Source of the DNA: Patescibacteria group bacterium
GTDB lineage: Bacteria > Patescibacteriota > WWE3 > UBA101185 > UBA10185
NCBI GenBank assembly: GCA_016926555.1
Contig: JAFGOI010000008.1
Span: 12,821-76,820 of the forward strand
DNA: 64,000 nucleotides
Direction of reading: 5' to 3'
Below the pieces are notes generated by a model. It had not been told where the DNA came from. It worked only from the letters and a program-made list of their open reading frames with translations, and ran no database searches. Below, piece by piece: positions 1 to 48,971 of this stretch (position 1 is the first letter of the stretch; every line of letters begins with the position of its first letter). The position numbers were made by a program, and so were the translations under genes.

Positions 1-418
1 AAACAAACCCATGCGGAGAAACGGGAGATGTTTGACCTGTTGTCAAAGCATACAAACCATTATCATGAATTACAATTGTTATATCGTGATTTCTTCGACA
101 AGCGTGAATAAAATGATTGCCTCCTTCACCTAAACAATCCCCATCACCCGTAAACGCGAAAACATTTAGCTTGTGGTCTGATAACTTTATGCCTGTGGCA
201 ACTGGTATGGGCCTGCCATGCAGCCCTTCAAGAGAGGTAATTTTTGTAAAATTAACTATGTGCCCGTGACATCCTATTCCCGCGGCCAAAGCTGTGTTTG
301 TATTATCCCAGCCCTCTTGAACTGCTGCATTTTTAAACGCCGCCCATAAGGACATATTTCCGCAGCCTGGGCACCAATTTGGAGTGTATGGAGTTGCTAA
401 TTCGCTCAAAGTGGTCAT
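1..418 (-). CDS. 2-oxoacid:ferredoxin oxidoreductase beta subunit (TPP-binding). Partial: the gene starts at 418 and runs off the window edge.
   Basis: Minus-strand translation MTTLSELATPYTPNWCPGCGNMS...GIGCHG...FTGDGD matches the OFOR beta TPP-binding N-terminus. Its ATG overlaps the korA stop (ATGA). Confidence 0.8.
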   Translation of the reverse strand, partial: MTTLSELATPYTPNWCPGCGNMSLWAAFKNAAVQEGWDNTNTALAAGIGCHGHIVNFTKITSLEGLHGRPIPVATGIKLSDHKLNVFAFTGDGDCLGEGGNHFIHACRRNHDITIVIHDNGLYALTTGQTSPVSPHGFV

Positions 419-2151
419 TTTTTACCTCCTAATATACTATCAATTTTTTGCTGTATTTCATGAGTGTAAAACGGTCTTCCGTCATATTTAAGCAGTTTGT
501 CTTTTACCTCAATACCTGTTTTTTCTTTTACTAAACCTAAAAATTGCGCGCTAAAACTCGCTTCAACCCCTAAAACGTGCTTCGACTCCTCAAGCACTTT
601 CTTTATCTGCCCAGTTGGAAACGGATTCATCCAGGTTATATGCAAATAATTAACATTCTCATGCTCTTTTATGGCCTGCAGAATGCTGCCTTTATTGCTT
701 CCCCAAGAAATTATTGTCACATCAGCATCTTTTGATCCATACAGAGTTTGTGGAGGCATATCAGTACTAGCGCATGTCTCCAACTTTTTCATTCTCTTAT
801 TCATTTGGCTATTTCTGTTATCAATTTCCTCGGAAGAATAGCCGTATTCGTTATGTTCGTCAGAATTCGCGATAAAGAAATTACCAACACCCGGAATACT
901 TCGTATGGAAATACCGTCTGCAGATAGTTCGTACCTTTTATAATCTTCTATTTTATCCACTGAAAACTTACCGCGGTCTACAACATACTCTTTTGAATCA
1001 AAAATCGGATAACTCTGATCGTTTTCGCATATGTTTTTATCTATCAGTAAAACAACGGTTGTTTGGTACCTTTCGGCCAAATTAAACGCTGCTAAAGTTA
1101 AATAATAAGCTTCCTGAGGATCTCCCGCGGCAAGAACAATACGCGGGAAATCACCTTGATGCATATGTAAAACCATTCTAAGGTCGCCCTGCTCGCTCCA
1201 AGTGGGAAGACCCGTTCCCGGGCCGCCGCGCATACCCTCAACAATAACGAGCGGAACTTCAGCTATACCTGCAAGACCGTAACCTTCCCCCATTAAACAG
1301 AAACCTCCTCCAGACGTCGCCGTCATAGCTCTCGCACCTGCAAATGATGCGCCGATAGACATGTTTATCGCTGAAATTTCATCTTCCGGTTGTTTGTATA
1401 CATAACCGTATTCTTCTTGATACTTTGCTAACACGTGCAAAATGTTAGAAATCGGAGACATGGGATAAATAGCGGCAAATTGGAGACCCGCTCGGATAGC
1501 TCCCAAAGCAACGGCCTCATTTCCGTTTATAAGTATTCTATCTTTTGTTTCATTTAAACTTTGAACATGTTTTAGTTTATCTGTAAGATCATCTTTATAT
1601 TTATCCAACACAAAACTGTATCCTTTTTCCGCCGCATCCTGGTTTAATTTAATTACGTTTTCGCCTTTATCTTCAAACTCTTCTTTTAATAGGACCTTCA
1701 ACACTTCTATGTCACCACTCTTTAACCCAATAAGCGCCCCTAAAGCAACCGTGTTTATATGCAGTTCAGATCCCCCGCATTCTCTAGCGAGATCTAAAAG
1801 GGGCAGGGGATACTTAGAAACATTTTCCGGCAATTTGGATAGGTCCAGATTTGTTTCGCTGTCGTACAAAACAGATGAGTTTTCTTTATACTCATCCAAA
1901 TGAAAATCAATCGAATCCTGATTAAGCGCAATCAGAAAATCTATTTTATAGCTGGGACCGGTCACTTCATCTAACGAGATATTTATCTGCATAACATTGT
2001 GGCCCCCGCGTATAATTGACGGATATTCTATATAATTAAAAACATTGTACCCGGATCTTTTAGCAAATTTAGCCAGCAAAATCCCCGAGGATTTTATTCC
2101 TTGCCCCGCTTGACCGGCAATTTTTATTGTTAGTACCTCTTGCTTGCTCAT
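415..2151 (-). CDS. 2-oxoacid:ferredoxin oxidoreductase alpha subunit (fused gamma-alpha type, KorA/PorA-like).
   Basis: 578 aa. N-terminus IKIAGQAGQGIKSSGILLAKF is gamma-domain-like, followed by the alpha domain. Operon arrangement with the downstream beta subunit. Ends in TGA. Confidence 0.85.
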   Translation of the reverse strand: MSKQEVLTIKIAGQAGQGIKSSGILLAKFAKRSGYNVFNYIEYPSIIRGGHNVMQINISLDEVTGPSYKIDFLIALNQDSIDFHLDEYKENSSVLYDSETNLDLSKLPENVSKYPLPLLDLARECGGSELHINTVALGALIGLKSGDIEVLKVLLKEEFEDKGENVIKLNQDAAEKGYSFVLDKYKDDLTDKLKHVQSLNETKDRILINGNEAVALGAIRAGLQFAAIYPMSPISNILHVLAKYQEEYGYVYKQPEDEISAINMSIGASFAGARAMTATSGGGFCLMGEGYGLAGIAEVPLVIVEGMRGGPGTGLPTWSEQGDLRMVLHMHQGDFPRIVLAAGDPQEAYYLTLAAFNLAERYQTTVVLLIDKNICENDQSYPIFDSKEYVVDRGKFSVDKIEDYKRYELSADGISIRSIPGVGNFFIANSDEHNEYGYSSEEIDNRNSQMNKRMKKLETCASTDMPPQTLYGSKDADVTIISWGSNKGSILQAIKEHENVNYLHITWMNPFPTGQIKKVLEESKHVLGVEASFSAQFLGLVKEKTGIEVKDKLLKYDGRPFYTHEIQQKIDSILGGKK

Positions 2152-5027
2152 ACAAATTTCTCCGTATAGATTCTTTCTTCAGGACAACCATTCGCTATTA
2201 ATACATCCGTGGCATCCTTAACCATATACTTGTTTCCGCATAAATACGCGGAAACCTTTGAAGCATCTTTATAATCTTTCTTTACTAGATCAGTAATGAA
2301 ACCCTGATGGCCTTTCCATCCCTCATTCGGTTTAAAAACGGCTATATCATATTTAAAGTTCGGATACTCATTCTTTAAGGAATCCAGATAATCCGTCCAA
2401 AAAATGTCCTCGACAAAATTCAGACCTATATATAAATGTATCGTACCTTTAAATTTATGTTCTTTTAGCGCGGATTCAATCATACACCTAAGTGGGCTGA
2501 CACCCGATCCTGTACCCAAAAACAAAAGTGTTTCTGCGTCGTCCTCCGGTTTATACGTAAACACACCAAAGGGTCCTAAAAATGTTATTTTGTCGTTTAC
2601 TTTGAGATTTTCAAAAAACTTTGAACCGGGCCCTCCAGGTTTTGTATCTACCAATAAAGAAAACTGTTTTGTATCCACATGAGAAGCCACCGAATAACAC
2701 CTTATTGTGTTTTCGGCCACTTTAACACTTATATACTGGCCCGGATTAAATTCAAATGGTTCATCCGGAATAAAATCATATGAGTGATATGTTGTTGCTA
2801 AGACAGCGTGCCGTGAAGTCTTTGCCGTTAAAAACTGCGGTTTTTTAGCTTTCTGCGCATGTTCACCCTCTTTTAGTATAACTTTTGTGTCTACAGCCCA
2901 AACAGTATCTAAAGTAACTATAACAGGGTTAATCTCAATAGATTCCGCCTCCGGTATCATTTCGGACAGTTTAGATACTTTCACTATCAATTCGCATAGT
3001 TCGTTTAATTCATAAGGAGGACTTCCTCTGTAACCTTTGAGCAAAGTGTAAACTTTAGAATTTTCGACGAGTTTTTTTGCCGTTGGAATATCTATAGGCA
3101 GTAAATGAAGATTTCTATCTACTATCAATTCGGCCAAACTTCCCCCGGCGCCAAATAACAGCACACTCCCGAATACCGGATCCCTTTTGAACCCGACTAT
3201 AACCTCTATTCCGTTTAATATCTCCTTCTGAATCTGGATTTTTATACCCGATTTAATATTTTCGTCAAATTCTTCTATCCTCTTTTGAAGCTTATCCCAA
3301 GAGGACTCCAATTGCGCTTCGTTCATAATATCAACAATAACCCCGCCTAATTCTTTCTTGTGCACAATCTGATTTGACGAAAGCTTTAAAACCATCGGCC
3401 AGCCATTTATTTTTGAAAACTCTAAAGCCTCCTCAAACGTGTTTACTATTGATGTTGGCGGTGTTAGAAGCCCAAGAGAAACTGATATATTGTTAGAAGC
3501 TATTGCATCTAACGCTTTTACTTTTTTCGAGAGCGCTTCATTTACTATTTTTTTCATTCTTGTATCATCTGCTTCTATTTCAAAAGCCTCACTTATACTT
3601 ATCTTTTGCTTTTCAATCTGCATCTGTCTAAATCTCCACATTGAAGAAATAGCTTTTACAGCGCGTTCCGGATACCTGAAATTAGGTATTTTGTGTTTAT
3701 TTAAAATCTCTTCCCCTTTGTTAACATGGCTTCCCCCTATAAAAGAGCAGAAAATGGGTTTCTTATATTCCGCCGATAAATTACCTATGTACTCAGCGGT
3801 TTGTTCTATTTGGGTCATTAATTGAGGGGTTAATATAAAAATCAGCGCGTCAACTTTATCCGTTTCCAAAATTACTTCCGCCGCTTTCAGATATCTATCC
3901 GCTAAAGCATCACCCAAAACATCGACCGGATTTACTATATTGGCAGTTCTTGGAAGTATCTCTGCTAGTTTATTCCTTGTTTCATCCGATAACTCAGGCA
4001 GCTGCAGACCTTCAAGAACTGCGGCATCTGTGCTGATTACGGCAGGACCTCCTGCGTTTGAAATTATGTGCACATTTGGTCCCTCCGGTAGATTTTCCCA
4101 CGCAAACGCCTTTGAAAGGTCGAATAAATCCTCGAGTGTGTCGCATCTAAAAACACCGGCTTGTTTAACTACTACATCCATTACTGCGTCTTCCCCCGCG
4201 ATTGAACCTGTGTGAGATTGCATAGCTGTTGAAGATTCCCGAGTTTTTCCAGGTTTTAGAAGCAAAATAGGATCTCTATTAGATATTTCGCTGCAGATCT
4301 GTAAGAATTTCTCGCCGTCAGTTATCGATTCCAGATACATTCCAATGGGCGAGACACTGGATAGGCCATCAAATTCTGTATCACTACTTGAAACAGCATT
4401 ATTTTTATCTGGCGCGCGCATAAAATACTCTAGAGCATCATTCTCGCTTAGCACAGCTTTGTTTCCCAAGGTAATAAACTCACTATAGCCAATTCCATTT
4501 GTTTCACACCAATCAAATATACTCGAAGCTAATGCCCCTGACTGAGAAATAAACCTTAGGTTTCCCGTTTTTTCATAAATGTCCGAGAAAGTAGTATTTA
4601 AAGAGCATTTGTTATTTACAAATCCAAGACAATTTGGTCCTAAAACGTTTAAATCGTACTTCTTTGAGATCTCAACTAATTCATTTTCCAGTTCCAGCCC
4701 CGCTTCACCAATCTCTTTAAATCCTGCGGCAAGCACAACAACATTTTTTATTCCCTTTTCTCCAATCTCTTTAAGAACTCCGTTCACGGCACTCGCGGGA
4801 ACTGCTAAAACAGCTAAATCGGGTATTTCAGCAATCTCAGACACATTTTTATAGCACTTTAAGTTCAATATGCTTTCAGAAGAAGGATTTACCGGGTATA
4901 CATTTCCCTTAAAATTGGATTCTGCTATATTTTTAAGTACTATGTGCCCAATCTTTTGAGTATTACTTGACGCGCCTACAACAGCAACAGATTTTGGACA
5001 GAAAAAATCTTCTAGATTACTGGGCAT
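2148..5027 (-). CDS. Acetyl-CoA synthetase (ADP-forming, fused alpha/beta) with a C-terminal ferredoxin-NADP reductase-like FAD/NAD(P)-binding domain (about 2151-2830).
   Basis: N-terminal CoA-binding region VAVVGAS..GPNCLGF plus ATP-grasp regions. The C-terminal ~225 aa carry RxYS (RCYSVAS), GGxxS (GGPGSKF), GTGxxP (GTGSGVSP) and a CG (YLCGNKYM) motif typical of FNR-like reductases. Overlaps the korA start by 4 bp. Confidence 0.75.
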   Translation of the reverse strand: MPSNLEDFFCPKSVAVVGASSNTQKIGHIVLKNIAESNFKGNVYPVNPSSESILNLKCYKNVSEIAEIPDLAVLAVPASAVNGVLKEIGEKGIKNVVVLAAGFKEIGEAGLELENELVEISKKYDLNVLGPNCLGFVNNKCSLNTTFSDIYEKTGNLRFISQSGALASSIFDWCETNGIGYSEFITLGNKAVLSENDALEYFMRAPDKNNAVSSSDTEFDGLSSVSPIGMYLESITDGEKFLQICSEISNRDPILLLKPGKTRESSTAMQSHTGSIAGEDAVMDVVVKQAGVFRCDTLEDLFDLSKAFAWENLPEGPNVHIISNAGGPAVISTDAAVLEGLQLPELSDETRNKLAEILPRTANIVNPVDVLGDALADRYLKAAEVILETDKVDALIFILTPQLMTQIEQTAEYIGNLSAEYKKPIFCSFIGGSHVNKGEEILNKHKIPNFRYPERAVKAISSMWRFRQMQIEKQKISISEAFEIEADDTRMKKIVNEALSKKVKALDAIASNNISVSLGLLTPPTSIVNTFEEALEFSKINGWPMVLKLSSNQIVHKKELGGVIVDIMNEAQLESSWDKLQKRIEEFDENIKSGIKIQIQKEILNGIEVIVGFKRDPVFGSVLLFGAGGSLAELIVDRNLHLLPIDIPTAKKLVENSKVYTLLKGYRGSPPYELNELCELIVKVSKLSEMIPEAESIEINPVIVTLDTVWAVDTKVILKEGEHAQKAKKPQFLTAKTSRHAVLATTYHSYDFIPDEPFEFNPGQYISVKVAENTIRCYSVASHVDTKQFSLLVDTKPGGPGSKFFENLKVNDKITFLGPFGVFTYKPEDDAETLLFLGTGSGVSPLRCMIESALKEHKFKGTIHLYIGLNFVEDIFWTDYLDSLKNEYPNFKYDIAVFKPNEGWKGHQGFITDLVKKDYKDASKVSAYLCGNKYMVKDATDVLIANGCPEERIYTEKFV

Positions 5028-5133
5028 AAGTTCAGTCTAATTAAGTTTTTATACTGTGTCAAAGACAAGTACAAAAATGTTTTTTACACCTTTCGCACAC
5101 TTTTATAAATAAGAGAAAATTCTAAGATATAAT

Positions 5134-5478
5134 TTGTATATGAATATAGTATCCGGCATCGATATGGTTTATATTGAAGAATTCGGGGAACAGCTTAAAT
5201 TATCCGAAGATAATTTTGTAAAAAGATGTTTCACGACAAAGGAGCAGAATATAAAGGAAACCAAGACGTTAGCGGGAATATTTGCAGTAAAAGAATCCGT
5301 AATAAAAGCTTATTCTCTGGCACCGGGTAGTTGGTTGAATATAGAGGTTGATAACAGGAACAGCGGAAAACCTTATGTAACAATTAAAAATATAGACGAA
5401 AAGGTCTTATCTCAAGACGTGAGTATATCTCACTCTAAAGATTACGTAATAGCTTCATATACTGCTTTGATAGAATAA
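5134..5478 (+). CDS. acpS: Holo-[acyl-carrier-protein] synthase (4'-phosphopantetheinyl transferase, AcpS type).
   Basis: 114 aa. GIDMVYIEEF...FAVKESVIKA...ISISHSKDYVIA matches the AcpS pattern. Confidence 0.7.
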   Translation: MYMNIVSGIDMVYIEEFGEQLKLSEDNFVKRCFTTKEQNIKETKTLAGIFAVKESVIKAYSLAPGSWLNIEVDNRNSGKPYVTIKNIDEKVLSQDVSISHSKDYVIASYTALIE

Positions 5479-5482
5479 AATA

Positions 5483-7975
5483 ATGTACAAAGATTTTACA
5501 CACTTTCTTAAAGATTTGACGGATCGTTTCGATGACAAAACAGCCCTTTATATAAGACGTATTTTTAAGATAGAAAGAATTACATACAGACAATTACACG
5601 AAAATGTAAAGAAACTCGGAATATTTTTTAAAAATAGCGACGTAAAAGCGGGGGATAGAGTGCTCATATGGGGCCCTAATATACCTGAATGGGTAGTTGC
5701 TCTTTTAGGCTGTTTTTACCATGGAGTAATTGTAGTACCAGTAAATGTACACACATCGCAGGCGACATTCGAAAAATACTTCGCCGAAACGGAGGCCAAG
5801 TTAATTTTCATATCAAAGTCTATCCCCAAACTACCCGAACAATACAAAGAAAAAATCTTTTATCTGGAAGATCTTTTGAACATTATTAGAGATTTAGATG
5901 AACAAGAGAGTTTTGACCAAAATGAAGATGAAGTAATAGAAATAGTATACACATCTGGCACAACGGGAGAACCGAAAGGTCTAATGATTACACATAGAAA
6001 CATTTTTTCAGAACTTGATAGCCTGTGGGATATTGCTCCCAGAGATCCGGATTATAGACTGTTATCACTACTGCCTTTAAGTCATGTTATGGAGCAGGTA
6101 ATAGGTTTAATTCTCCCACTATCTCTCGGCGGAACTATATATTATTTACCAAAAATAAACACTGTGACTATAAGCAAAGCACTTAATAAATATAAAATAT
6201 CTTATCTTGGCGTAGTTCCTCAAATGCTTAGGATTCTTTTAGATTCCATAGAAAACGAGGTTGAAAAACAGGGAATCGAAAAAGAATTTAAGAAAATGTT
6301 GGAAATATCAGAAAGACTACCTTTCTTTTTGAGGAAATACATTTTTAGAAAAGTTCACAGAAAATTTGGCGGCCACTTAAAAATGATGATGTGCGGAAGC
6401 GCCCCTTTGCCGCCAAAACTCGGTCAGACATGGGAAAATATGGGTTTTAAAGTTATTGAGGGATATGGCGCGTCTGAAACTTCCGCTGCCGCAACGTGCA
6501 ATACAGTAAATAAGCGAGTTTTTGGAACAGTAGGAAAACCCATGAGGTGTAACGATGTAAAAATAATAGAAGACGGGGAAGTGGTAATAAAAGGATCTAA
6601 TGTCACTCCAGGTTACTTTAAAAATCCTGAAAAAACTAAAGAATCTTTTACAGAAGATGGCTATTTTAAAACAGGCGATATTGGTTATTTTGATGAAAAC
6701 GGATACTTACGGCTTTCGGGAAGGACAAAATTTAGAATTGTTACACCCGCAGGCGAAAAAGTGTATCCGGAAGATCTAGAAGTCAAACTAAACTCACATG
6801 GCGATATTTGGGATAACTGTGTAATAGGTATACCTGTAGAGGGCGGGGAAGAGGTCTATGCGGTTGTAATAACAAAAGAAGGTGCTAATTTAGATAAAGT
6901 TATTGAAGAAGTAAATAATAATTTAGAAGCGCATCAGAAAATAAGACAATATAGTAAATGGGAGGAAAAGGATTTTCCAAGACTACACACATTAAAAGTT
7001 GATAGAAAAGCCGTAAAAGAGAGAATTTTAGAGAACAAACCCCAAACGCCAGAAAATATCCCGAATAAAAAAGCTGATAACGATAATGAATTGAAAGATA
7101 TCATTTCATTAGTATGTAAAGTAAACCCCGCAGAGATAGGTAAAAATAAGGTACTTACCAAGGATTTTCACCTGGATTCCTTAAGGAGAGTCGCGCTCGT
7201 TTCCTTAATAGAAGAAGAATACGGGGTCATTGTAGAAGAAAGTGATATCACGCAAGATACCACTGTAAGTGATCTAGAAAAACTCATTAAAATTGGCAAA
7301 AAACGTGTAGATTTTACGCTACCGGCAGAGTGGCCTCTTAATCCTTTTTTGTTTAAAATTAGGGATTTTCTAAGAAATTTGATAGTAACACCAATACAAA
7401 ACTATTACATTACCGATTTAAAAGTAGAGGGTATTGAAAACCTTAAAGGCTTAAAACCACCTTTAATAATAGTATTTAACCATATAGGTCACTACGACCA
7501 TGCCCTAATATATAGAATATTGCCAAAAGAACTAAGATTAAAACTCACTGGTTTGGCTGACAAAGAGCTGTATAGAACTAAATTTAAAGCATTTTTACAG
7601 TATTTCTTCGGTGGTGCTTATCCCGTGGATAAATATGGAGGCCCGGTTAGAAAGTCCCTTGAATTGGCTACAGATCTATTAGATAGGGGATTCGTTTTAT
7701 TACTATCACCAGAAGGGGAAATAAGTTATAGCGAAAAAATGCTTGAATTCAAAAAAGGCGTTGGCATGCTGGCGGTTGAAACCGGCGTTCCTGTTTTACC
7801 TATAAGAATAAAGGGTTACCACAAGATTTATAAAAAGAGACACGAATGGCCGTTTTTGCCGCCGGATGGAAGGGGTGAGGTTACTGTTGTTATTGGAAAA
7901 TCACGTACTTTTGAAAAAGGTACTACTTACGATAAATCTACTAAAATCATAAGAGATATACTCGAAGAATTGTAG
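5483..7975 (+). CDS. Tri-domain fusion: acyl-AMP/acyl-CoA ligase (AMP-binding), acyl carrier domain, and 1-acylglycerol-3-phosphate acyltransferase (PlsC-like). Aas-like lysophospholipid acylation enzyme.
   Basis: AMP-binding motif YTSGTTGEPKG in the N-terminal half. Carrier-domain motif DFHLDSL with the serine at 7178-7180. PlsC HX4D motif NHIGHYDH at 7481-7498 and a PEGE motif in the C-terminal part. Confidence 0.8.
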   Translation: MYKDFTHFLKDLTDRFDDKTALYIRRIFKIERITYRQLHENVKKLGIFFKNSDVKAGDRVLIWGPNIPEWVVALLGCFYHGVIVVPVNVHTSQATFEKYFAETEAKLIFISKSIPKLPEQYKEKIFYLEDLLNIIRDLDEQESFDQNEDEVIEIVYTSGTTGEPKGLMITHRNIFSELDSLWDIAPRDPDYRLLSLLPLSHVMEQVIGLILPLSLGGTIYYLPKINTVTISKALNKYKISYLGVVPQMLRILLDSIENEVEKQGIEKEFKKMLEISERLPFFLRKYIFRKVHRKFGGHLKMMMCGSAPLPPKLGQTWENMGFKVIEGYGASETSAAATCNTVNKRVFGTVGKPMRCNDVKIIEDGEVVIKGSNVTPGYFKNPEKTKESFTEDGYFKTGDIGYFDENGYLRLSGRTKFRIVTPAGEKVYPEDLEVKLNSHGDIWDNCVIGIPVEGGEEVYAVVITKEGANLDKVIEEVNNNLEAHQKIRQYSKWEEKDFPRLHTLKVDRKAVKERILENKPQTPENIPNKKADNDNELKDIISLVCKVNPAEIGKNKVLTKDFHLDSLRRVALVSLIEEEYGVIVEESDITQDTTVSDLEKLIKIGKKRVDFTLPAEWPLNPFLFKIRDFLRNLIVTPIQNYYITDLKVEGIENLKGLKPPLIIVFNHIGHYDHALIYRILPKELRLKLTGLADKELYRTKFKAFLQYFFGGAYPVDKYGGPVRKSLELATDLLDRGFVLLLSPEGEISYSEKMLEFKKGVGMLAVETGVPVLPIRIKGYHKIYKKRHEWPFLPPDGRGEVTVVIGKSRTFEKGTTYDKSTKIIRDILEEL

Positions 7976-12175: not shown

Positions 12176-13011
12176 CCGGACTTTGATCTTTTTATCAAAG
12201 ACAAGGCGCCATATAAACCCGCGTCATCTCCAAATTTGGATTTCACAATAGGGGGAATCTTTACGAATTCAGTTTTTTTAAGATTTTCCATCAGGTGAGG
12301 ATAAAAATTATCGAATTGGTTGTAACCAAGCCCCCCGCCTAATATAACAATATCAGGACTCCACATATTAATTACATTGTGTATACCGATCGCTAAATAC
12401 GACGCGTATTCTTCCCAGAGGTTTATATCCTCACATTTTTCCGAATCAACACCGTAATTATCTTCAAAAAAATATCCGGAAGCGTAAACTTCAAAATCAC
12501 CTTTTATACCTGAATTCGTATTTAGCTTTCCATCTTTTACTATAATATGATGTCCGGGTTCAAAGCATCCCGAATTATCTATCTTTTTATCAATGATTCT
12601 CGCACCGCCTATTCCCGTGCTAATTGTTAAATAAGTAACCACACTATAATTTTTTCCCGCTCCATTTTGCGCTTCAGCCAAACCCGCCACAGTGGCATCA
12701 TTTTCGACAAAAATTCTGGAAAGATCATATTTATTGTCAAAAAGTTCAGTGAATTTTTTACCGTCAAGAGAAGAATAATTCGGCATTTTTACAAATTTTT
12801 TGGAACTTTTATTTATCATTCCGTGTATTCCCATTCCTATAAAACTCACCTCAAGATTATTAGACACATCCTTTATAGCCTCATTTAGAAAACTTTTCTG
12901 TTCTTCTAAATTCATGGATGTTCTAAATTTTCTTATGTTATTAAATGAATTTAAATCTAATGAAGACGCAACTCTTGTATTTGTATTGCCAAAATCTATA
13001 GAAATGTACAT
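12172..13011 (-). CDS. ROK-family sugar kinase (glucokinase-like).
   Basis: MYISIDFGNTNTRVA N-terminal ATPase motif, LTISTGIGGARI, and ILGGGLG. The start was chosen at the second Met (13011) rather than the track start at 13050. Confidence 0.65.
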   Translation of the reverse strand: MYISIDFGNTNTRVASSLDLNSFNNIRKFRTSMNLEEQKSFLNEAIKDVSNNLEVSFIGMGIHGMINKSSKKFVKMPNYSSLDGKKFTELFDNKYDLSRIFVENDATVAGLAEAQNGAGKNYSVVTYLTISTGIGGARIIDKKIDNSGCFEPGHHIIVKDGKLNTNSGIKGDFEVYASGYFFEDNYGVDSEKCEDINLWEEYASYLAIGIHNVINMWSPDIVILGGGLGYNQFDNFYPHLMENLKKTEFVKIPPIVKSKFGDDAGLYGALSLIKRSKSG

Positions 13012-28682: not shown

Positions 28683-30134
28683 CTACCAGTGAGTATTCGA
28701 GGAGCCCTTTAATCTATAAACTTCAGCCAAAACTAGGCCACCTTGCGTAAACTCTTTCTCTTTCTCGTAGTAATCCTTGTAAACCTTATTAAAGTTGACA
28801 TCCTTAATAAAGAACTCCTGCGGATTATTCACATGAATATAAAATTGAGGCAAAAAGTTGGATCCAGGAGGAGTGTAGTCTATCCCATTTAAATAATACT
28901 GGGCTATTGTGTCATTATCATTTGTGTAAATACCTCTGACACCTTCTTTTGATTCAAAATATTTTCTTAGCTCTCTCCAAGATCGATTATAGGGAAATCC
29001 ATATAAATATAAATGGTATTTGGTCGATATTTTACTATTCCATGGATACCCTGTATTTATTCTCGGCACATAAATAAATAGAGAGTTTACTAAAGTTACG
29101 GAGATTACGAAAACCGCTAAAACATTTGCCAGTTTGAGACCGACACGATCAGAAATTCCTTCGTATATTTCAACAAATGAGTAGCCACACATAATAGTCA
29201 GGGGAATGACGTATATATAAATATGTGTTCCAGGATTAAGAATAACCAATTCATATATAAGAAGGGCGCTGATAAACCAGAATAACTGAAGTTTCATACA
29301 TTTTTCTTTTATCTTTATAAAAAACAATACAAATGGAACAAGAAATATATAAAACGCTAGTATTGTGCGGTTGTAAACCAAATACGTATACAAGGAGTTA
29401 TTGAGCGAAAAATCTCCACCCGTCATCCTCCGCAATACATAATTAACCGTGTTATCCTCAAAATAGCCGCCGGTATAATAAGGTATATAGAAAACCGATG
29501 CTACAAGTAAAAAGGGTGCAACAAAATATACAAGAATAGGTATAAACTTCAACTTGTTTCTAATTACTAAATAAAATATCGGTATTAGAAAAAATACAGC
29601 ATCATAATGGCAGAGTAGGGAAGCGCTGAAAGATATAGCCGATAATAACAGTAGAACACAATTTTCCTTCTTTTTACACTGATTAACATACTTAACAAAA
29701 AGCAGAATACCCGATAGACCAAATAATATGAGTATGCTCTGGTACTGAATAGTTCGTGAAAACGCTATAAAAAAGCCACTCACCGAAAATAAATATGCAG
29801 CCGCTATTCCCGTTTTCCATCCGTAGAGACTTTTCACAAGAAGATACAAAACAAAAACAGATATCACCCCCGCAATTCCAAAAGGTATCCTAGTCCATAA
29901 TTCATGATAACCTCCAATAATTTTCTCGGTAAACCAAACCACAAGAAACTGCATCGGCCCCTTTCGCTGATCTAACAGAAATTCTTTCGCGGGAATTGTT
30001 TTATCCTGATAAAAAGTTTTTGTCTCATCCCCATAGAAATCCGAATATCCAAGAAACAATAAGCGGAGTAACACAGTAACAACAGCCAGAAAAATCAGCA
30101 ATTCTTTTTCATGTTTCTTGAACGAGAGCTTCAT
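28683..30134 (-). CDS. GT-C fold membrane glycosyltransferase (ArnT-like).
   Basis: Polytopic, with the RKGPMQFLV motif. Paralog of 26279-27766. Confidence 0.55.
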   Translation of the reverse strand: MKLSFKKHEKELLIFLAVVTVLLRLLFLGYSDFYGDETKTFYQDKTIPAKEFLLDQRKGPMQFLVVWFTEKIIGGYHELWTRIPFGIAGVISVFVLYLLVKSLYGWKTGIAAAYLFSVSGFFIAFSRTIQYQSILILFGLSGILLFVKYVNQCKKKENCVLLLLSAISFSASLLCHYDAVFFLIPIFYLVIRNKLKFIPILVYFVAPFLLVASVFYIPYYTGGYFEDNTVNYVLRRMTGGDFSLNNSLYTYLVYNRTILAFYIFLVPFVLFFIKIKEKCMKLQLFWFISALLIYELVILNPGTHIYIYVIPLTIMCGYSFVEIYEGISDRVGLKLANVLAVFVISVTLVNSLFIYVPRINTGYPWNSKISTKYHLYLYGFPYNRSWRELRKYFESKEGVRGIYTNDNDTIAQYYLNGIDYTPPGSNFLPQFYIHVNNPQEFFIKDVNFNKVYKDYYEKEKEFTQGGLVLAEVYRLKGSSNTHW

Positions 30135-31078
30135 TGCGTCTGTAGATCAGAAATATACTTTTCTGCGTCAAGCGCGGCCATACAGCCAAAACCTGCGGCC
30201 GAGACAGCTTGTCTGTACTTATAATCTGCGACATCCCCAGCAACAAAAACACCCCCCACAGAGGTTTTCGTACCTTCATGCACAATCACATAGCCTTTTC
30301 TATCCAAATCCAAAAAACCTTGTAAAAAGTCCGTATTTGGTTTATGCCCAATTGCTATAAATAAACCTTTTACGCCATCCAGCTTTGTATCCTCTCTTTT
30401 AATATTGTCATGTAGGATCAATCCTTCTACAACCTTTTCTCCAAGAATCTCTTTTACTTCGGTATTGAACAGGAATTCTATCTTCCTAGTTCGAAAAGCC
30501 TTATCCTGCATTATTTTACTTGCTCTTAGATTCTCCTTATCTCTTCTGACGAGAACATATACTTTTGGACTAAACTTCGATAGAAACAACGCCTCTTCCA
30601 TTGCGGCATCTCCGCCGCCCACTACCGCAGTAACTTTATCCTTAAAAAAGGGGCCGTCACACGTTGCACAAACTGAAACTCCTCTGCCTTTTAACCTCTC
30701 TTCACTTTCCAAACCCAACCATTTCGCCGAAGCCCCCGTTGCAATAATTAAAGCCTTTGCTTCCAACACACTTCCGTTTTCCAGAACTGCTTTAAAAGAA
30801 TCTTCTCCCGTTTTTTCAACATAATCTACATCGTAATCCATAAATTCAGCTCCAAATTTTTCTGCTTGAGAACGCATTCGTTCAATCAATTCAGGCCCTT
30901 TTACACCCTTGGGAAACCCAGGAAAATTTTCAACATCTGTAGTAATCATTAATTGCCCACCAGAAGTACTCCCGGAAACGACACACGTAGAGAGAAACCC
31001 TCTAGATGTATAAATTGCTGCCGTCAAACCCGCGCAACCCCCTCCCACTATCACAATTTCAAAACTTGTATTAGACAT
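30131..31078 (-). CDS. trxB: Thioredoxin-disulfide reductase.
   Basis: FAD motif IVIVGGGCAGLTAA, redox-active CATC (CATCDG), and NADPH motif VVGGGDAAMEEA. Confidence 0.9.
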   Translation of the reverse strand: MSNTSFEIVIVGGGCAGLTAAIYTSRGFLSTCVVSGSTSGGQLMITTDVENFPGFPKGVKGPELIERMRSQAEKFGAEFMDYDVDYVEKTGEDSFKAVLENGSVLEAKALIIATGASAKWLGLESEERLKGRGVSVCATCDGPFFKDKVTAVVGGGDAAMEEALFLSKFSPKVYVLVRRDKENLRASKIMQDKAFRTRKIEFLFNTEVKEILGEKVVEGLILHDNIKREDTKLDGVKGLFIAIGHKPNTDFLQGFLDLDRKGYVIVHEGTKTSVGGVFVAGDVADYKYRQAVSAAGFGCMAALDAEKYISDLQTQ

Positions 31079-31848: not shown

Positions 31849-31924
31849 GCGGCGGTAGTTCAGTTGGTAGAACGTCTCCCTTCCAAGGAGAAGGTCGCCG
31901 GTTCGAGCCCGGTTCGCCGCTCCA
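31849..31924 (+). tRNA. tRNA-Gly (anticodon TCC).
   Basis: Cloverleaf read by eye: acceptor GCGGCGG/CCGCCGC, anticodon loop CTTCCAA, T-loop GGTTCGAGCC, CCA encoded. Confidence 0.85.
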
Positions 31925-31952
31925 AATTCATTCAACACATGGTCACTTATTT

Positions 31953-32750
31953 ATGTCTTCTTCTTTAACCGAAAAAAACGAAAAATTTAAGGGATATAAA
32001 TATCAATATCTTGATTCCATAACCGGCGAACATATTATTTTGGCTATACACGGCTTGGCCGGAAGCAAGGAAAGCATGTCTGAATTAATTGAAACGAAGG
32101 ACAATTTCAGATACATATTTATAGACTTACCGGGCCATGGAAATTTGGAAACTCAAGGTATAACTTGTTTACTCGATTTCGCAAAGTATATCGAGTCATT
32201 TCTTACCTTTAAAAATATAAGCAGGATCGGGATAATAGGATTTTCTCTTGGCGGATTGGTCGCTTTAAAGACTATTCAGCTAATCGAAAGCTCTACCCAA
32301 ACGTATGGGATAATATGGGCTGCTCCTTTAAACCTTAAACACAACTTCCTTAGATTTAACTCTAAGCTTAGTATTTGGCTAACTAAAATATTGCCGATGT
32401 TCGTATACCGTAAACTTTATAAATCTTTTCTACCGGATCTGCTATTAAAAACGGGTGCAATATCTCTGTCAAAGCGGGAAAATGAAGCTCTCGGGCAGTA
32501 TGATAGCAAATTAATCAATAAAGCGCCTACCATATTTAAGGAAAAAACCTATACAAACGTTAAATCCCCACTCTTATATATTTTTGGTACAAATGATAGT
32601 TTAGTAAAAGAAAAATATCTTGATGAGTTACAGCTTACTAATGAACACCAGAAGATAGAAATAATAGAGAGTGGGGGACATTTTCCATCAAGAGAAGGTC
32701 TACATAGTGCTAACTTAGCTATGCAAAAGTTTTTTGGCTCGTATTTATAG
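31953..32750 (+). CDS. Alpha/beta-fold hydrolase.
   Basis: HGLAGS oxyanion region and nucleophile elbow GFSLGG. Confidence 0.7.
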   Translation: MSSSLTEKNEKFKGYKYQYLDSITGEHIILAIHGLAGSKESMSELIETKDNFRYIFIDLPGHGNLETQGITCLLDFAKYIESFLTFKNISRIGIIGFSLGGLVALKTIQLIESSTQTYGIIWAAPLNLKHNFLRFNSKLSIWLTKILPMFVYRKLYKSFLPDLLLKTGAISLSKRENEALGQYDSKLINKAPTIFKEKTYTNVKSPLLYIFGTNDSLVKEKYLDELQLTNEHQKIEIIESGGHFPSREGLHSANLAMQKFFGSYL

Positions 32751-32811
32751 CTTATCTACAGTTATAATTACTTCCTAAATAACCTAAAAAAGGTTAAAAT
32801 AGCTGTGTCCT

Positions 32812-32887
32812 GCGCCCGTAGCTCAGCGGATAGAGCAGTTCCCTTCTAAGGAAAAGGTCGGGGGTTCAATTCCCTCCGGGCGCGCCA
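32812..32887 (+). tRNA. tRNA-Arg (anticodon TCT).
   Basis: Acceptor GCGCCCG/CGGGCGC, anticodon loop CTTCTAA, T-loop GGTTCAATTCC, CCA encoded. Confidence 0.8.
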
Positions 32888-32934
32888 AAAAAACTTGTCA
32901 CCATTTATTAGCTAAACGTATAATCTTTTTACAC

Positions 32935-33020
32935 GCCCGGGTGGTGGAATGGCAGACACGAGAGACTTAAAATCTCTTGTCCTTTTGGACGTGTGGGTTC
33001 GACTCCCACCCCGGGCACCA
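32935..33020 (+). tRNA. tRNA-Leu (anticodon TAA), with a long variable arm.
   Basis: Acceptor GCCCGGG/CCCGGGC, anticodon loop CTTAAAA, long variable arm, T-loop GGTTCGACTCC, CCA encoded. Confidence 0.8.
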
Positions 33021-42499: not shown

Positions 42500-42910
42500 T
42501 TGAACAACAAACGAGGTATGTTAAAAAGTGTAGATAAGGACGCTAAAGAGTTATCTTTATCAATAGCAAAGGGGATTTCAAATGAAGATGCAACCCCTTA
42601 CGTAAACCAAGAACTAGAGAATTTAATGATACAGAAAAGTGACTTGGAAGATGAGATTGAAAAAATTGAGGAGAAACTTCAAAAAGTTGAAGTTGATGTC
42701 ATAAGTCTCGACCAATTCTTGAACTTGTCGAAAAATGCTCCTAATACAATCAGAAATGGAGATGCCGTACTAAAAGATGCAATTTGCAGATTTATATTCT
42801 TGAACATTGATATTGGAGTTGACGAAGTGTTGTCATATAAGCTCAAAGAGCCATTTGATACCCTTATAAAACAGCGTAAAAAATCCAATGGTCGGGGTGG
42901 TCGGACTTGA
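42500..42910 (+). pseudogene. Possible C-terminal remnant of a large serine recombinase (coiled-coil plus terminal beta-strand region). The 3' end overlaps tRNA-Pro.
   Basis: Coiled-coil LEDEIEKIEEKLQKVEVDV followed by AICRFIFLNIDIGVDEVLSYKL, which resembles large serine recombinase C-termini. An upstream frame at 42320-42530 gives a Cys-containing fragment. No catalytic domain is present. Confidence 0.3.
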
Positions 42911-42966
42911 ACCGACGACCTCACGGTCCCAAACCGTGCACTCTAATCCAACTGAGCTACACCCCG
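42889..42966 (-). tRNA. tRNA-Pro (anticodon TGG).
   Basis: Reverse complement gives acceptor CGGGGTG/CACCCCG, anticodon loop TTTGGGA, T-loop GGTTCAAGTCC, CCA encoded. Confidence 0.8.
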
Positions 42967-44691: not shown

Positions 44692-44776
44692 GGGCGAGTG
44701 GCGGAATTGGTATACGCGCACGGCTTAGAACCGTGTTCCTTGCGGATTGTGGGTTCGAGTCCCACCTCGCCCACCA
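44692..44776 (+). tRNA. tRNA-Leu (anticodon TAG), with a long variable arm.
   Basis: Acceptor GGGCGAG/CTCGCCC, anticodon loop CTTAGAA, T-loop GGTTCGAGTCC, CCA encoded. TATAAT lies about 20 nt upstream. Confidence 0.8.
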
Positions 44777-48894: not shown

Positions 48895-48971
48895 GACCGG
48901 GTAGCTCAGTTGGTTAGAGCGCCACGTTGACATCGTGGAGGTCACAGGTTCGAGTCCTGTCTCGGTCACCA
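48895..48971 (+). tRNA. tRNA-Val (anticodon GAC).
   Basis: Acceptor GACCGGG/CTCGGTC (one G-U pair), anticodon loop TTGACAT, T-loop GGTTCGAGTCC, CCA encoded. Confidence 0.85.

Follow-up and report, generated by a model that had tools for sequence, protein, structure and literature searches.

Fused alpha-beta ADP-forming acyl-CoA synthetases (ACDs), such as those of structures 8wzu and 4xym (the latter being Ca. Korarchaeum ACD1), combine a five-subdomain layout and two catalytic histidines in a single chain. Reductases of the ferredoxin-NADP reductase (FNR)-like superfamily, including NqrF, BenC, MmoC and E. coli Fre, pair an FAD_binding_6 with a NAD_binding_1 domain, which in the first three is accompanied by an N-terminal plant-type [2Fe-2S] domain. 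A connection between 2-oxoacid oxidation and NADPH is provided by the pyruvate:NADP+ oxidoreductase (PNO) of Euglena, Cryptosporidium and Blastocystis, in which an oxidoreductase of the pyruvate:ferredoxin oxidoreductase (PFOR) type is joined to an NADP reductase, such that pyruvate oxidation gives NADPH (PMC3129679). Metabolic reconstructions for the Candidate Phyla Radiation (CPR) list PFOR or 2-oxoacid:ferredoxin oxidoreductase (OFOR), ACD and a hydrogenase described as '3b-like' individually, and leave open both the recycling of reduced ferredoxin and the origin of the NAD(P)H that the small number of anabolic reactions consume (PMC3812714, PMC7143001). Here, a gene is described in which an ACD and an FNR-like flavoprotein module are joined in one chain, designated ACD-FNR, and which lies beside OFOR genes in a stretch of 64,000 nucleotides (the window; positions 12,821 to 76,820 of contig JAFGOI010000008.1, assembly GCA_016926555.1) from a Patescibacteria group bacterium of the WWE3 lineage. 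Coordinates without a locus number are window positions.

The ACD-FNR gene occupies positions 2148..5027 of the reverse strand, on which its domains also lie, and consists of one open reading frame (ORF) of 959 codons plus a stop codon, free of internal stops. A Pfam scan placed six domains on the protein, every one above its gathering score, and confirmed that the protein is composed of an ACD (residues 1-720), a linker and an FNR-like module (residues 735-959); no Fe-S domain was among the Pfam matches to the 959 residues. The ACD part comprises a CoA-binding Rossmann domain (CoA_binding_2, PF13380; residues 12-138, 4614..4994, E 1.2e-24), a flavodoxin-like Succ_CoA_lig domain (PF13607; residues 155-308, 4104..4565, E 1.5e-39), a Ligase_CoA_2 domain (PF19045; residues 319-461, 3645..4073, E 2.4e-11) and an ATP-grasp_5 domain corresponding to the ACD beta part (PF13549; residues 498-718, 2874..3536, E 1.5e-54). 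The Succ_CoA_lig domain carries the phosphohistidine loop S271-H272-T-G-S-I-A-G, which aligns with SHTGALMG of 8wzu and has the consensus S-H-T-G-[AS]-[ILM]-A-G among homologues. Both His272 (codon at 4212-4214) and the second catalytic histidine, His556 of an H-K motif (3360-3362), are invariant in the 120 homologues compared. With the four domains and both histidines of the NDP-forming acyl-CoA synthetase superfamily in place, residues 1 to ~720 are predicted to constitute a catalytically competent ACD.

The nearest solved structure to the ACD part is the 4-hydroxybutyrate-CoA ligase [ADP-forming] of Nitrosopumilus (8wzu), with which it aligns from end to end (E 9e-128) and superimposes in Foldseek with TM values of 0.92-0.94; identity to the fused alpha-beta ACDs is 30-35%, and the five-subdomain layout is common to all. 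Scores against the acetate--CoA ligase (ADP-forming) equivalogs, the cut-offs of which imply acetyl-CoA specificity, fall below those cut-offs (TIGR02717, 501.4 vs 567.15; NF045494, 433.5 vs 1200), and the most likely reaction of this half would be the conversion of acetyl-CoA, ADP and Pi to acetate, ATP and CoA; in three related lineages the enzyme found in place of the ACD is an AMP-forming ligase specific for acetate. Unlike the fused alpha-beta ACDs, ACD-FNR adds a C-terminal flavoprotein module of 225 residues, and to our knowledge no characterised ACD carries such a module. A precedent for a catalytic domain placed C-terminally on a complete ACD-like scaffold is the E. coli PatZ/Pat protein acetyltransferase (9it0, 9isq), although the appendage of PatZ is a GNAT acetyltransferase as opposed to a flavoprotein.

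The C-terminal ~225 residues are predicted to form a complete two-domain FNR-like flavoprotein, in which a flavin adenine dinucleotide (FAD)-binding beta-barrel (FAD_binding_6, PF00970; residues ~735-830, 2538..2825; Pfam match 755-825, E 3e-10) is followed by a NAD(P)-binding Rossmann domain (NAD_binding_1, PF00175; residues ~831-959, 2151..2537; Pfam match 836-939, E 1.6e-16). Together with both domains, the window protein has the flavin motif of the superfamily (RCYS, 776-779), the GGxxS motif (GGPGS, 798-802), the GTGxxP loop (GTGSGVSP, 838-845), the C-G pair (Y928-L-C-G931) and a terminal aromatic residue (E956-K-F958-V), the last being the residue that shields the flavin in this fold class. 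Residues Y778, S779, G799, G801 and S802 are invariant in the 120 homologues, GTGSG and YLCG are conserved, and the chain ends in E-[KR]-[FY] plus zero or one residue. The flavin-contacting Arg of R-x-Y-S at position 776 (2700-2702) is present in the window protein and in 42 of the 120, whereas the remaining 78, two thirds of the family, have an unusual Asn, in which they differ from the reductase relatives. Asn at this position, which occurs also in several free-standing relatives, may alter flavin binding. With regard to the nucleotide, position 870 (after beta-2) is Arg, Thr or Asn and position 899 (after beta-3) is Lys in 83/120 and Glu or Asp in 15/120 homologues, a comparison that yields no clear signature for NAD as opposed to NADP.

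The fold, and the Y-S, GGxxS, GTGxG, C-G and terminal aromatic features, are shared with NqrF, BenC, MmoC and E. coli Fre. Indeed, the best PDB sequence matches of the module are the NqrF FAD domain, MmoC and BenC, its best NCBIfam matches are the reductase parts of MmoC, BenC, Fre and NqrF, all far below the equivalog cut-offs, and Foldseek aligned the tail with the NqrF FAD domain, carbazole-dioxygenase reductase, cytochrome b5 reductase and the gamma subunit of P. furiosus SHI (9nf0_C). Where NqrF, BenC and MmoC have their [2Fe-2S] domain, however, ACD-FNR has the ACD and no Fer2 domain, and an Fe-S partner must act in trans. The likeness to the SHI gamma subunit (part of the HydB/HydG beta/gamma diaphorase), also an FNR-like FAD/NAD(P) protein, is one of structure, with a weak sequence match, and the module differs from hydrogenase gamma subunits in being without their C-terminal [2Fe-2S] domain. 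More specific identities were considered for the module, namely plant-type FNR, Fre, BenC/MmoC and hydrogenase gamma, and each was set aside for want of a defining feature or of a score above the curated cut-off: the Fre model NF005963 aligns with residues 741-958 at 93.5 bits vs 230, the model for PetH, the plant and cyanobacterial ferredoxin-NADP+ reductase (NF045929), gives 49.7 vs 600, and the two models for group 3b hydrogenase gamma (HydG/ShyC) give 41.8 vs 600 (NF040830) and 37.3 vs 650 (NF040835).

The two halves of the protein are connected by a variable, flexible linker (residues ~719-734, 2826..2873), which, with a mean column identity of 0.47 as opposed to 0.64-0.77 in the domains, is the least conserved stretch of the chain; in most homologues 15-17 residues separate the conserved anchors on either side. 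In an AlphaFold2 model, for which 74 homologues were used, the mean predicted local distance difference test (pLDDT) value is 89.6, with values above 90 in the FNR module and a single segment below 50, at residues 722-728. A junction of this kind could result from a frameshift, a chimeric assembly or an overlooked stop between two genes, and one related locus, L050 (loci from related genomes and contigs are referred to by L numbers), truly carries two separate genes at that point, with a stop codon and a new ATG located precisely at the linker position. However, the identical 959-residue protein is encoded on a second, independently assembled contig (Logan; L007), one continuous ORF spans the junction in 42 of 47 species loci and in at least 120 database clusters, and conservation in frame across homologues extends to residues near the linker, P730 and A735 among them. 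The chance that the fusion is an artefact is vanishingly small on these observations, and that explanation is rejected. The initial annotation of this DNA, made from the sequence without database searches, had proposed an ACD fused to an FNR-like domain, had listed RxYS, GGxxS, GTGxxP and CG (the last at 930-931) as its motifs, had seen no Fe-S domain, and had named a stop or frameshift near nt 2830 as the finding that would undo the fusion; the domain assignment, the motifs and the absence of an Fe-S domain were all borne out, and nt 2830 falls in the linker of a single intact gene.

The architecture is not confined to this genome. At least 120 database clusters share it, the best 120, drawn from NCBI, JGI, ENA and Logan assemblies, being 52-60% identical to the window protein and 936-1018 residues long, and the source names attached to them, where given, are WWE3, Roizman-, Woese- and Levyibacteria, Microgenomates and Patescibacteria. 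In a survey in which one genome per GTDB species was scanned with the FNR module, and the resulting loci annotated by ORF and BLASTP analysis, 47 loci of 43-61% identity were recovered, comprising 42 that are fused, three that are free-standing and two that are broken by a contig end; a fused locus is present in the complete genome of WWE3 RAAC2 (CP006914.1). ACD-FNR is widespread, then, in one bacterial radiation, the Microgenomates/WWE3 Patescibacteria. A number of loci (L012, L013, L015, L023, L027 and others) belong to representative metagenome-assembled genomes with the record title 'uncultured Candidatus Saccharibacteria' or 'uncultured Gammaproteobacteria', which are probably automatic placeholder labels and were given no weight. 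When 1.8 billion representative proteins were searched with the FNR module, the best 150 matches included three full-length representatives of the fusion family plus fragments, and no ACD-type fusion from outside the Patescibacteria family; the remainder were free proteins of ~230 residues or [2Fe-2S]-fused reductases, the nearest free relatives being 33-47% identical. Full-text literature searches found no published description of the fusion, which is mentioned neither in PMC3812714 nor in PMC7143001, and its database entries already bear the unspecific label 'acetate--CoA ligase family protein'. The initial view of the architecture as undescribed is accordingly upheld as far as the searchable literature goes, but the fusion is neither rare nor unique, since it represents a conserved Microgenomates/WWE3 family in the databases.

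The genes that adjoin ACD-FNR suggest the company in which the module operates. The stop codon of the fusion gene overlaps the start codon of an OFOR alpha gene in an ATGA sequence (2148-2151), and the stop of OFOR alpha overlaps the start of OFOR beta in a second ATGA (415-418), in keeping with the translational coupling that had been suggested at the outset. OFOR alpha (415..2151, reverse strand) is of the fused gamma+alpha type, 578 residues long, with Pfam matches to POR, POR_N and PFOR_II and a TIGR03710 score of 616.7 bits vs 482.75. OFOR beta (1..418, reverse strand; TPP_enzyme_C, E 7e-19) is represented by its N-terminal 139 residues, the gene running past the window start. Four cysteines are invariant in 46 homologous beta subunits, of which Cys16, Cys19 and Cys50 lie within the window fragment, and these four are expected to hold a single [4Fe-4S] cluster. 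The pair has the features of a two-subunit 2-oxoacid:acceptor oxidoreductase, and a ferredoxin-like or delta domain is absent from the OFOR Pfam matches; with a single cluster in the beta subunit and no such domain, an external electron acceptor is needed.

A likely acceptor is encoded a short distance away in related genomes, where the order of the cluster across species is ACD-FNR, OFOR-alpha, OFOR-beta, a small ferredoxin, an EamA transporter, DUF6390, and the large and small subunits of a NiFe hydrogenase. Among species loci with enough sequence for each count, OFOR alpha lies immediately downstream of the fusion in 39 of 42, the ferredoxin (Fer4_13) is downstream in 34 of 37, and the NiFe hydrogenase is found within ~8 kb in 20 of 28. 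The ferredoxin (Fer4_13/15; L005 13484-13729, L001 15283-15549 and 40 other loci) conserves no more than three cysteines, arranged as C-I-[GS]-A-A-x-C...C-P-T, together with a C-terminal Q-V-W-P; the three-Cys pattern is the signature of a single-cluster ferredoxin of the [3Fe-4S] type. The hydrogenase (L003 16941-18732, L005 16211-18029, L022 14064-15882 and 17 other related loci) is reduced to a large subunit of 433 residues that resembles HydA/ShyA of group 3b and a small subunit of ~170 residues that covers the first ~153 of 261 HydD positions, and no genes for the beta/gamma diaphorase were present beside it in the related clusters examined. HypC, a HycI-like protease and DUF6390, which has a weak HypC-like match, accompany the reduced hydrogenase. 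Two local departures from the common order were observed: in L039 (3105-4881, reverse strand) a divergent OFOR beta/alpha pair (38-40% identity) lies on the opposite strand after the fusion gene, and in L043 (8711-10795) an insertion of ~2 kb separates the fusion gene from OFOR alpha. Upstream of the fusion gene in the window, a candidate promoter (TTGACA-17-TAGACT; 5034..5062, reverse strand) has its end 6 nt from the ATG, in a region where no Shine-Dalgarno sequence can be recognised; scanning of the AT-rich spacer gave one match where 2.1 are expected, which is chance level, and the site is therefore only a candidate. If it is used, the mRNA would be leaderless or nearly so.

PNO is among the closest functional parallels to this arrangement, although the two differ in construction. 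PNO carries a P450-reductase moiety, with flavin mononucleotide (FMN) and FAD, at the C-terminus of a single-chain, multi-cluster PFOR, whereas here a minimal FAD module shares a chain with the ACD, which catalyses the following step of the pathway, and stands beside a two-subunit, single-cluster OFOR and a separate ferredoxin. A flavodoxin or FMN domain is absent, and reductase and OFOR are separate chains; the resemblance is one of functional analogy only. The features that set the Patescibacterial system apart are the joining of so small an FAD module to the enzyme of the following step, the separate [3Fe-4S]-type ferredoxin and the stripped-down hydrogenase.

Free-standing forms of the module show which of these associations is constant. 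FNR homologues of ~230 residues, 42-53% identical to the module, adjoin OFOR alpha/beta in L008, L009, L010, L029, L047 and L050. In L008, L009 and L047 the order is AMP-forming acetate-CoA ligase (L008 807-2564, L009 1-1026, L047 6263-7970), free FNR, OFOR alpha, OFOR beta and then ferredoxin, with the ligase taking the position of the ACD; the L008 ligase scores 830 bits against NF003313 (cut-off 729). L010 has free FNR, OFOR alpha, OFOR beta and ferredoxin, with an unfused ACD of 718 residues at a distance of 3 kb, while in L029 the free FNR gene is preceded by an AT-rich region of its own, and the 8 kb upstream contain no ACD. In L050, where ACD and FNR are separate genes, the ACD stops exactly at the end of the ACD domain ('...VKVILV*') and the FNR begins 10 nt further on, in a different frame, with 'MPDFKTAT', an N-terminus typical of the free forms. 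More distant homologues broaden the picture. In L093 the order is different, with OFOR alpha and OFOR beta followed by a more distant, P0133-like FNR homologue, and in L092, L094 and L100 a still more distant FNR-like homologue is followed directly by the same three-Cys type of ferredoxin (L092 1470-1760, L094 5654-5896, L100 3209-3451).

The constant association is that of FNR module, OFOR and ferredoxin, and the ACD is a frequent yet replaceable neighbour. Since the ACD is separate, distant or exchanged for another enzyme beside the free FNR forms, the fusion looks like a secondary merger of adjacent genes, which most simply came about by loss of the stop codon between neighbouring ACD and FNR genes in an operon of the order ACD, FNR, OFOR-alpha, OFOR-beta and ferredoxin. 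A rough neighbour-joining tree places the free forms from beside OFOR genes within the fused set, which implies more than one fusion or fission event. The fusion probably fixes stoichiometry and proximity rather than making new chemistry, and may tether the ACD near the OFOR.

Given the invariant association of the module with OFOR and ferredoxin, ACD-FNR is read as a bifunctional protein, the FNR module of which would act as a ferredoxin:NAD(P)+ oxidoreductase serving the co-transcribed OFOR via the operon ferredoxin, an interpretation that is held with moderate confidence. For this reading we infer the flavin content of the module, the role of ferredoxin as carrier, the direction of electron flow, any preference for NAD or NADP, and any complex with the OFOR. 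The OFOR would oxidise pyruvate, or another 2-oxoacid, to acyl-CoA and CO2, and its single [4Fe-4S] cluster would pass single electrons to the [3Fe-4S]-type ferredoxin, the gene of which follows closely in related genomes. The flavin of the FNR module would then gather two electrons from ferredoxin and reduce NAD(P)+, and the same ferredoxin may feed the neighbouring reduced NiFe hydrogenase as a second outlet. The initial annotation had gone further in suggesting that the fusion couples redox balance to substrate-level phosphorylation; a general link between ferredoxin/NAD(P)H and the acetate- and ATP-forming branch is retained, but the fusion itself is no evidence of mechanistic coupling, the module being tied to OFOR and ferredoxin.

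Alternatively, the module could be a third subunit of the OFOR, drawing electrons directly from the beta [4Fe-4S] cluster with no soluble ferredoxin, in which case the assembly would amount to a 2-oxoacid:NAD(P)+ oxidoreductase with a tethered ACD. An NADP+-dependent 2-oxoglutarate oxidoreductase of Azoarcus evansii, cited in PMC8163825, provides an analogy. Adjacency of the FNR gene to the OFOR genes in both gene orders, the ATGA overlap, which suggests equimolar synthesis, and an OFOR without its own ferredoxin domain would all suit such a subunit. The A. evansii 2-oxoglutarate:NADP+ oxidoreductase of Ebenau-Jehle et al. 2003 is reported to have three subunits, namely an OFOR of the two-subunit type and an extra flavoprotein (KorC); the likeness would lie in an OFOR with a flavoprotein that reduces NADP+, and the fusion to an ACD is found in ACD-FNR alone. 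Against a bound subunit, a dedicated ferredoxin gene is retained in 34 of 37 operons, and the FNR/ferredoxin pair is found apart from any OFOR in L092, L094 and L100, which argues that ferredoxin is the direct partner of the module. A directly bound third subunit appears unlikely, though it is the most probable of the alternatives weighed here.

For the ferredoxin:NAD(P)+ oxidoreductase, the catabolic direction, from pyruvate to acetate and ATP, is favoured on the grounds of thermodynamics, of glycolytic and glycosidase neighbours and of published WWE3 and Microgenomates reconstructions (PMC3812714, PMC7143001). Among the genes at most 9 kb away in the window are those for a GH1 glycosidase, a ROK kinase and glucose-6-phosphate isomerase; the P0002 contig has pyruvate kinase immediately upstream, and L010 has GAPDH and PGK. 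Electron transfer from pyruvate oxidation (~-500 mV) to NAD(P)+ (-320 mV) is downhill. Conversely, the ACD or the AMP-forming ligase could activate acetate and the OFOR could act as a pyruvate synthase, with ferredoxin reduced from NAD(P)H or H2 by the FNR module, the hydrogenase or both. The FNR-like modules of the NqrF, BenC and MmoC class normally oxidise NAD(P)H, 20 of 28 loci have a NiFe hydrogenase capable of uptake nearby, L001 and L003 have PPDK or PEP-synthase-like genes in the vicinity of the cluster, and in L008, L009 and L047 an AMP-forming acetate-CoA ligase stands where the ACD would be, all of which could be accommodated by such an assimilatory role. Synthesis of pyruvate from NAD(P)H is strongly endergonic, however, and a [3Fe-4S] ferredoxin is unlikely to reach a low enough potential; moreover, the glycolytic and sugar-hydrolase neighbours, including the upstream pyruvate kinase, suit catabolism, and the ACD is the usual ATP-yielding, acetate-forming enzyme of fermenters, the WWE3 reconstruction included (PMC3812714). 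An assimilatory direction for the cluster as a whole is therefore regarded as improbable.

A role outside the pathway is also conceivable, in which the module would be a maintenance reductase of flavin or ferredoxin, dependent on NAD(P)H, that assists Fe-S assembly or repair or keeps the oxygen-sensitive OFOR reductively protected. In L091 (1154-1540), L092 (417-782) and L104 (4309-4692) a NifU_N Fe-S scaffold gene immediately precedes a distant free homologue, an adjacency that suggests a second role of the reductase family in Fe-S cluster assembly, and the module equals E. coli Fre in size and fold class. In the neighbour-joining tree, however, the OFOR-linked clade is separate from the NifU-linked clade, the Fre model remains far under its cut-off, and tight, conserved co-translation with a high-flux catabolic pair exceeds what maintenance would need. 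Such a duty is, of the roles weighed here, the one to which the lowest probability is attached.

Several observations weigh against the module being a ferredoxin:NAD(P)+ oxidoreductase that works in the catabolic direction. The potential of a [3Fe-4S] ferredoxin may lie above that of NAD(P)H, which would favour flow from NAD(P)H to ferredoxin. AMP-forming acetate-CoA ligases normally activate acetate, and the presence of one in place of the ACD in three lineages points to the opposite direction, at least there. Replacement of Arg776 by Asn in 78 of 120 homologues makes flavin type and affinity uncertain. The window begins inside OFOR beta, which places the ferredoxin and hydrogenase genes of this genome beyond the window start, and L007, the sole other contig with the identical protein, likewise ends inside OFOR beta. 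The fusion partner is the ACD and not the OFOR, a choice for which the data offer no reason.

The remaining features of the window lie outside the cluster. Divergent from the ACD-FNR operon, on the forward strand, are genes for a 4'-phosphopantetheinyl transferase (ACPS; 5134-5478) and for a protein of 830 residues (5483-7975) that combines an AMP-binding adenylation domain, a PP-binding carrier domain and a PlsC-type acyltransferase, and which is plausibly a self-contained enzyme of lipid salvage that activates fatty acids and acylates lysophospholipids with a built-in carrier. A flavoprotein of 315 residues resembling thioredoxin reductase (Pyr_redox_2; 30131-31078, reverse strand) could be a thioredoxin reductase or a ferredoxin-NADP reductase of the thioredoxin-reductase type, and in the latter case would be a second candidate for a link between ferredoxin and NAD(P) in this genome. 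Six tRNA genes are present, three of them clustered at 31849-33017 (forward strand) and the others at 42892-42966 (reverse), 44692-44773 (forward) and 48895-48968 (forward); no Rfam family other than tRNA reached its gathering score in the window.

A bolder proposal, which we rate as speculative and doubtful, is that ACD-FNR, OFOR alpha/beta and the three-Cys ferredoxin form a single particle that would be the oxygen-sensitive, minimal equivalent of the pyruvate dehydrogenase complex, and that the FNR/ferredoxin pair also replaces the beta/gamma diaphorase of the hydrogenase. If so, the particle would convert pyruvate, NAD(P)+, ADP and Pi directly to acetate, CO2, NAD(P)H and ATP, with acetyl-CoA and CoA passed between active sites, and one compact gene cluster would govern the balance of H2, ferredoxin and NAD(P)H in these bacteria with tiny genomes. 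A complex of these parts would constitute a compact module from pyruvate to ATP and NAD(P)H, of interest to anaerobic enzymology and pathway engineering.

In the sense of a 'Rosetta stone' gene fusion, ACD-FNR points to FNR-like proteins of ~230 residues as partners of two-subunit OFORs and single-cluster ferredoxins. What it offers is a clear and testable hypothesis for CPR redox metabolism rather than a new principle, and the cluster as a whole sets out, in concrete and testable form, how the energy and redox core of uncultivated Microgenomates and WWE3 bacteria could be wired.

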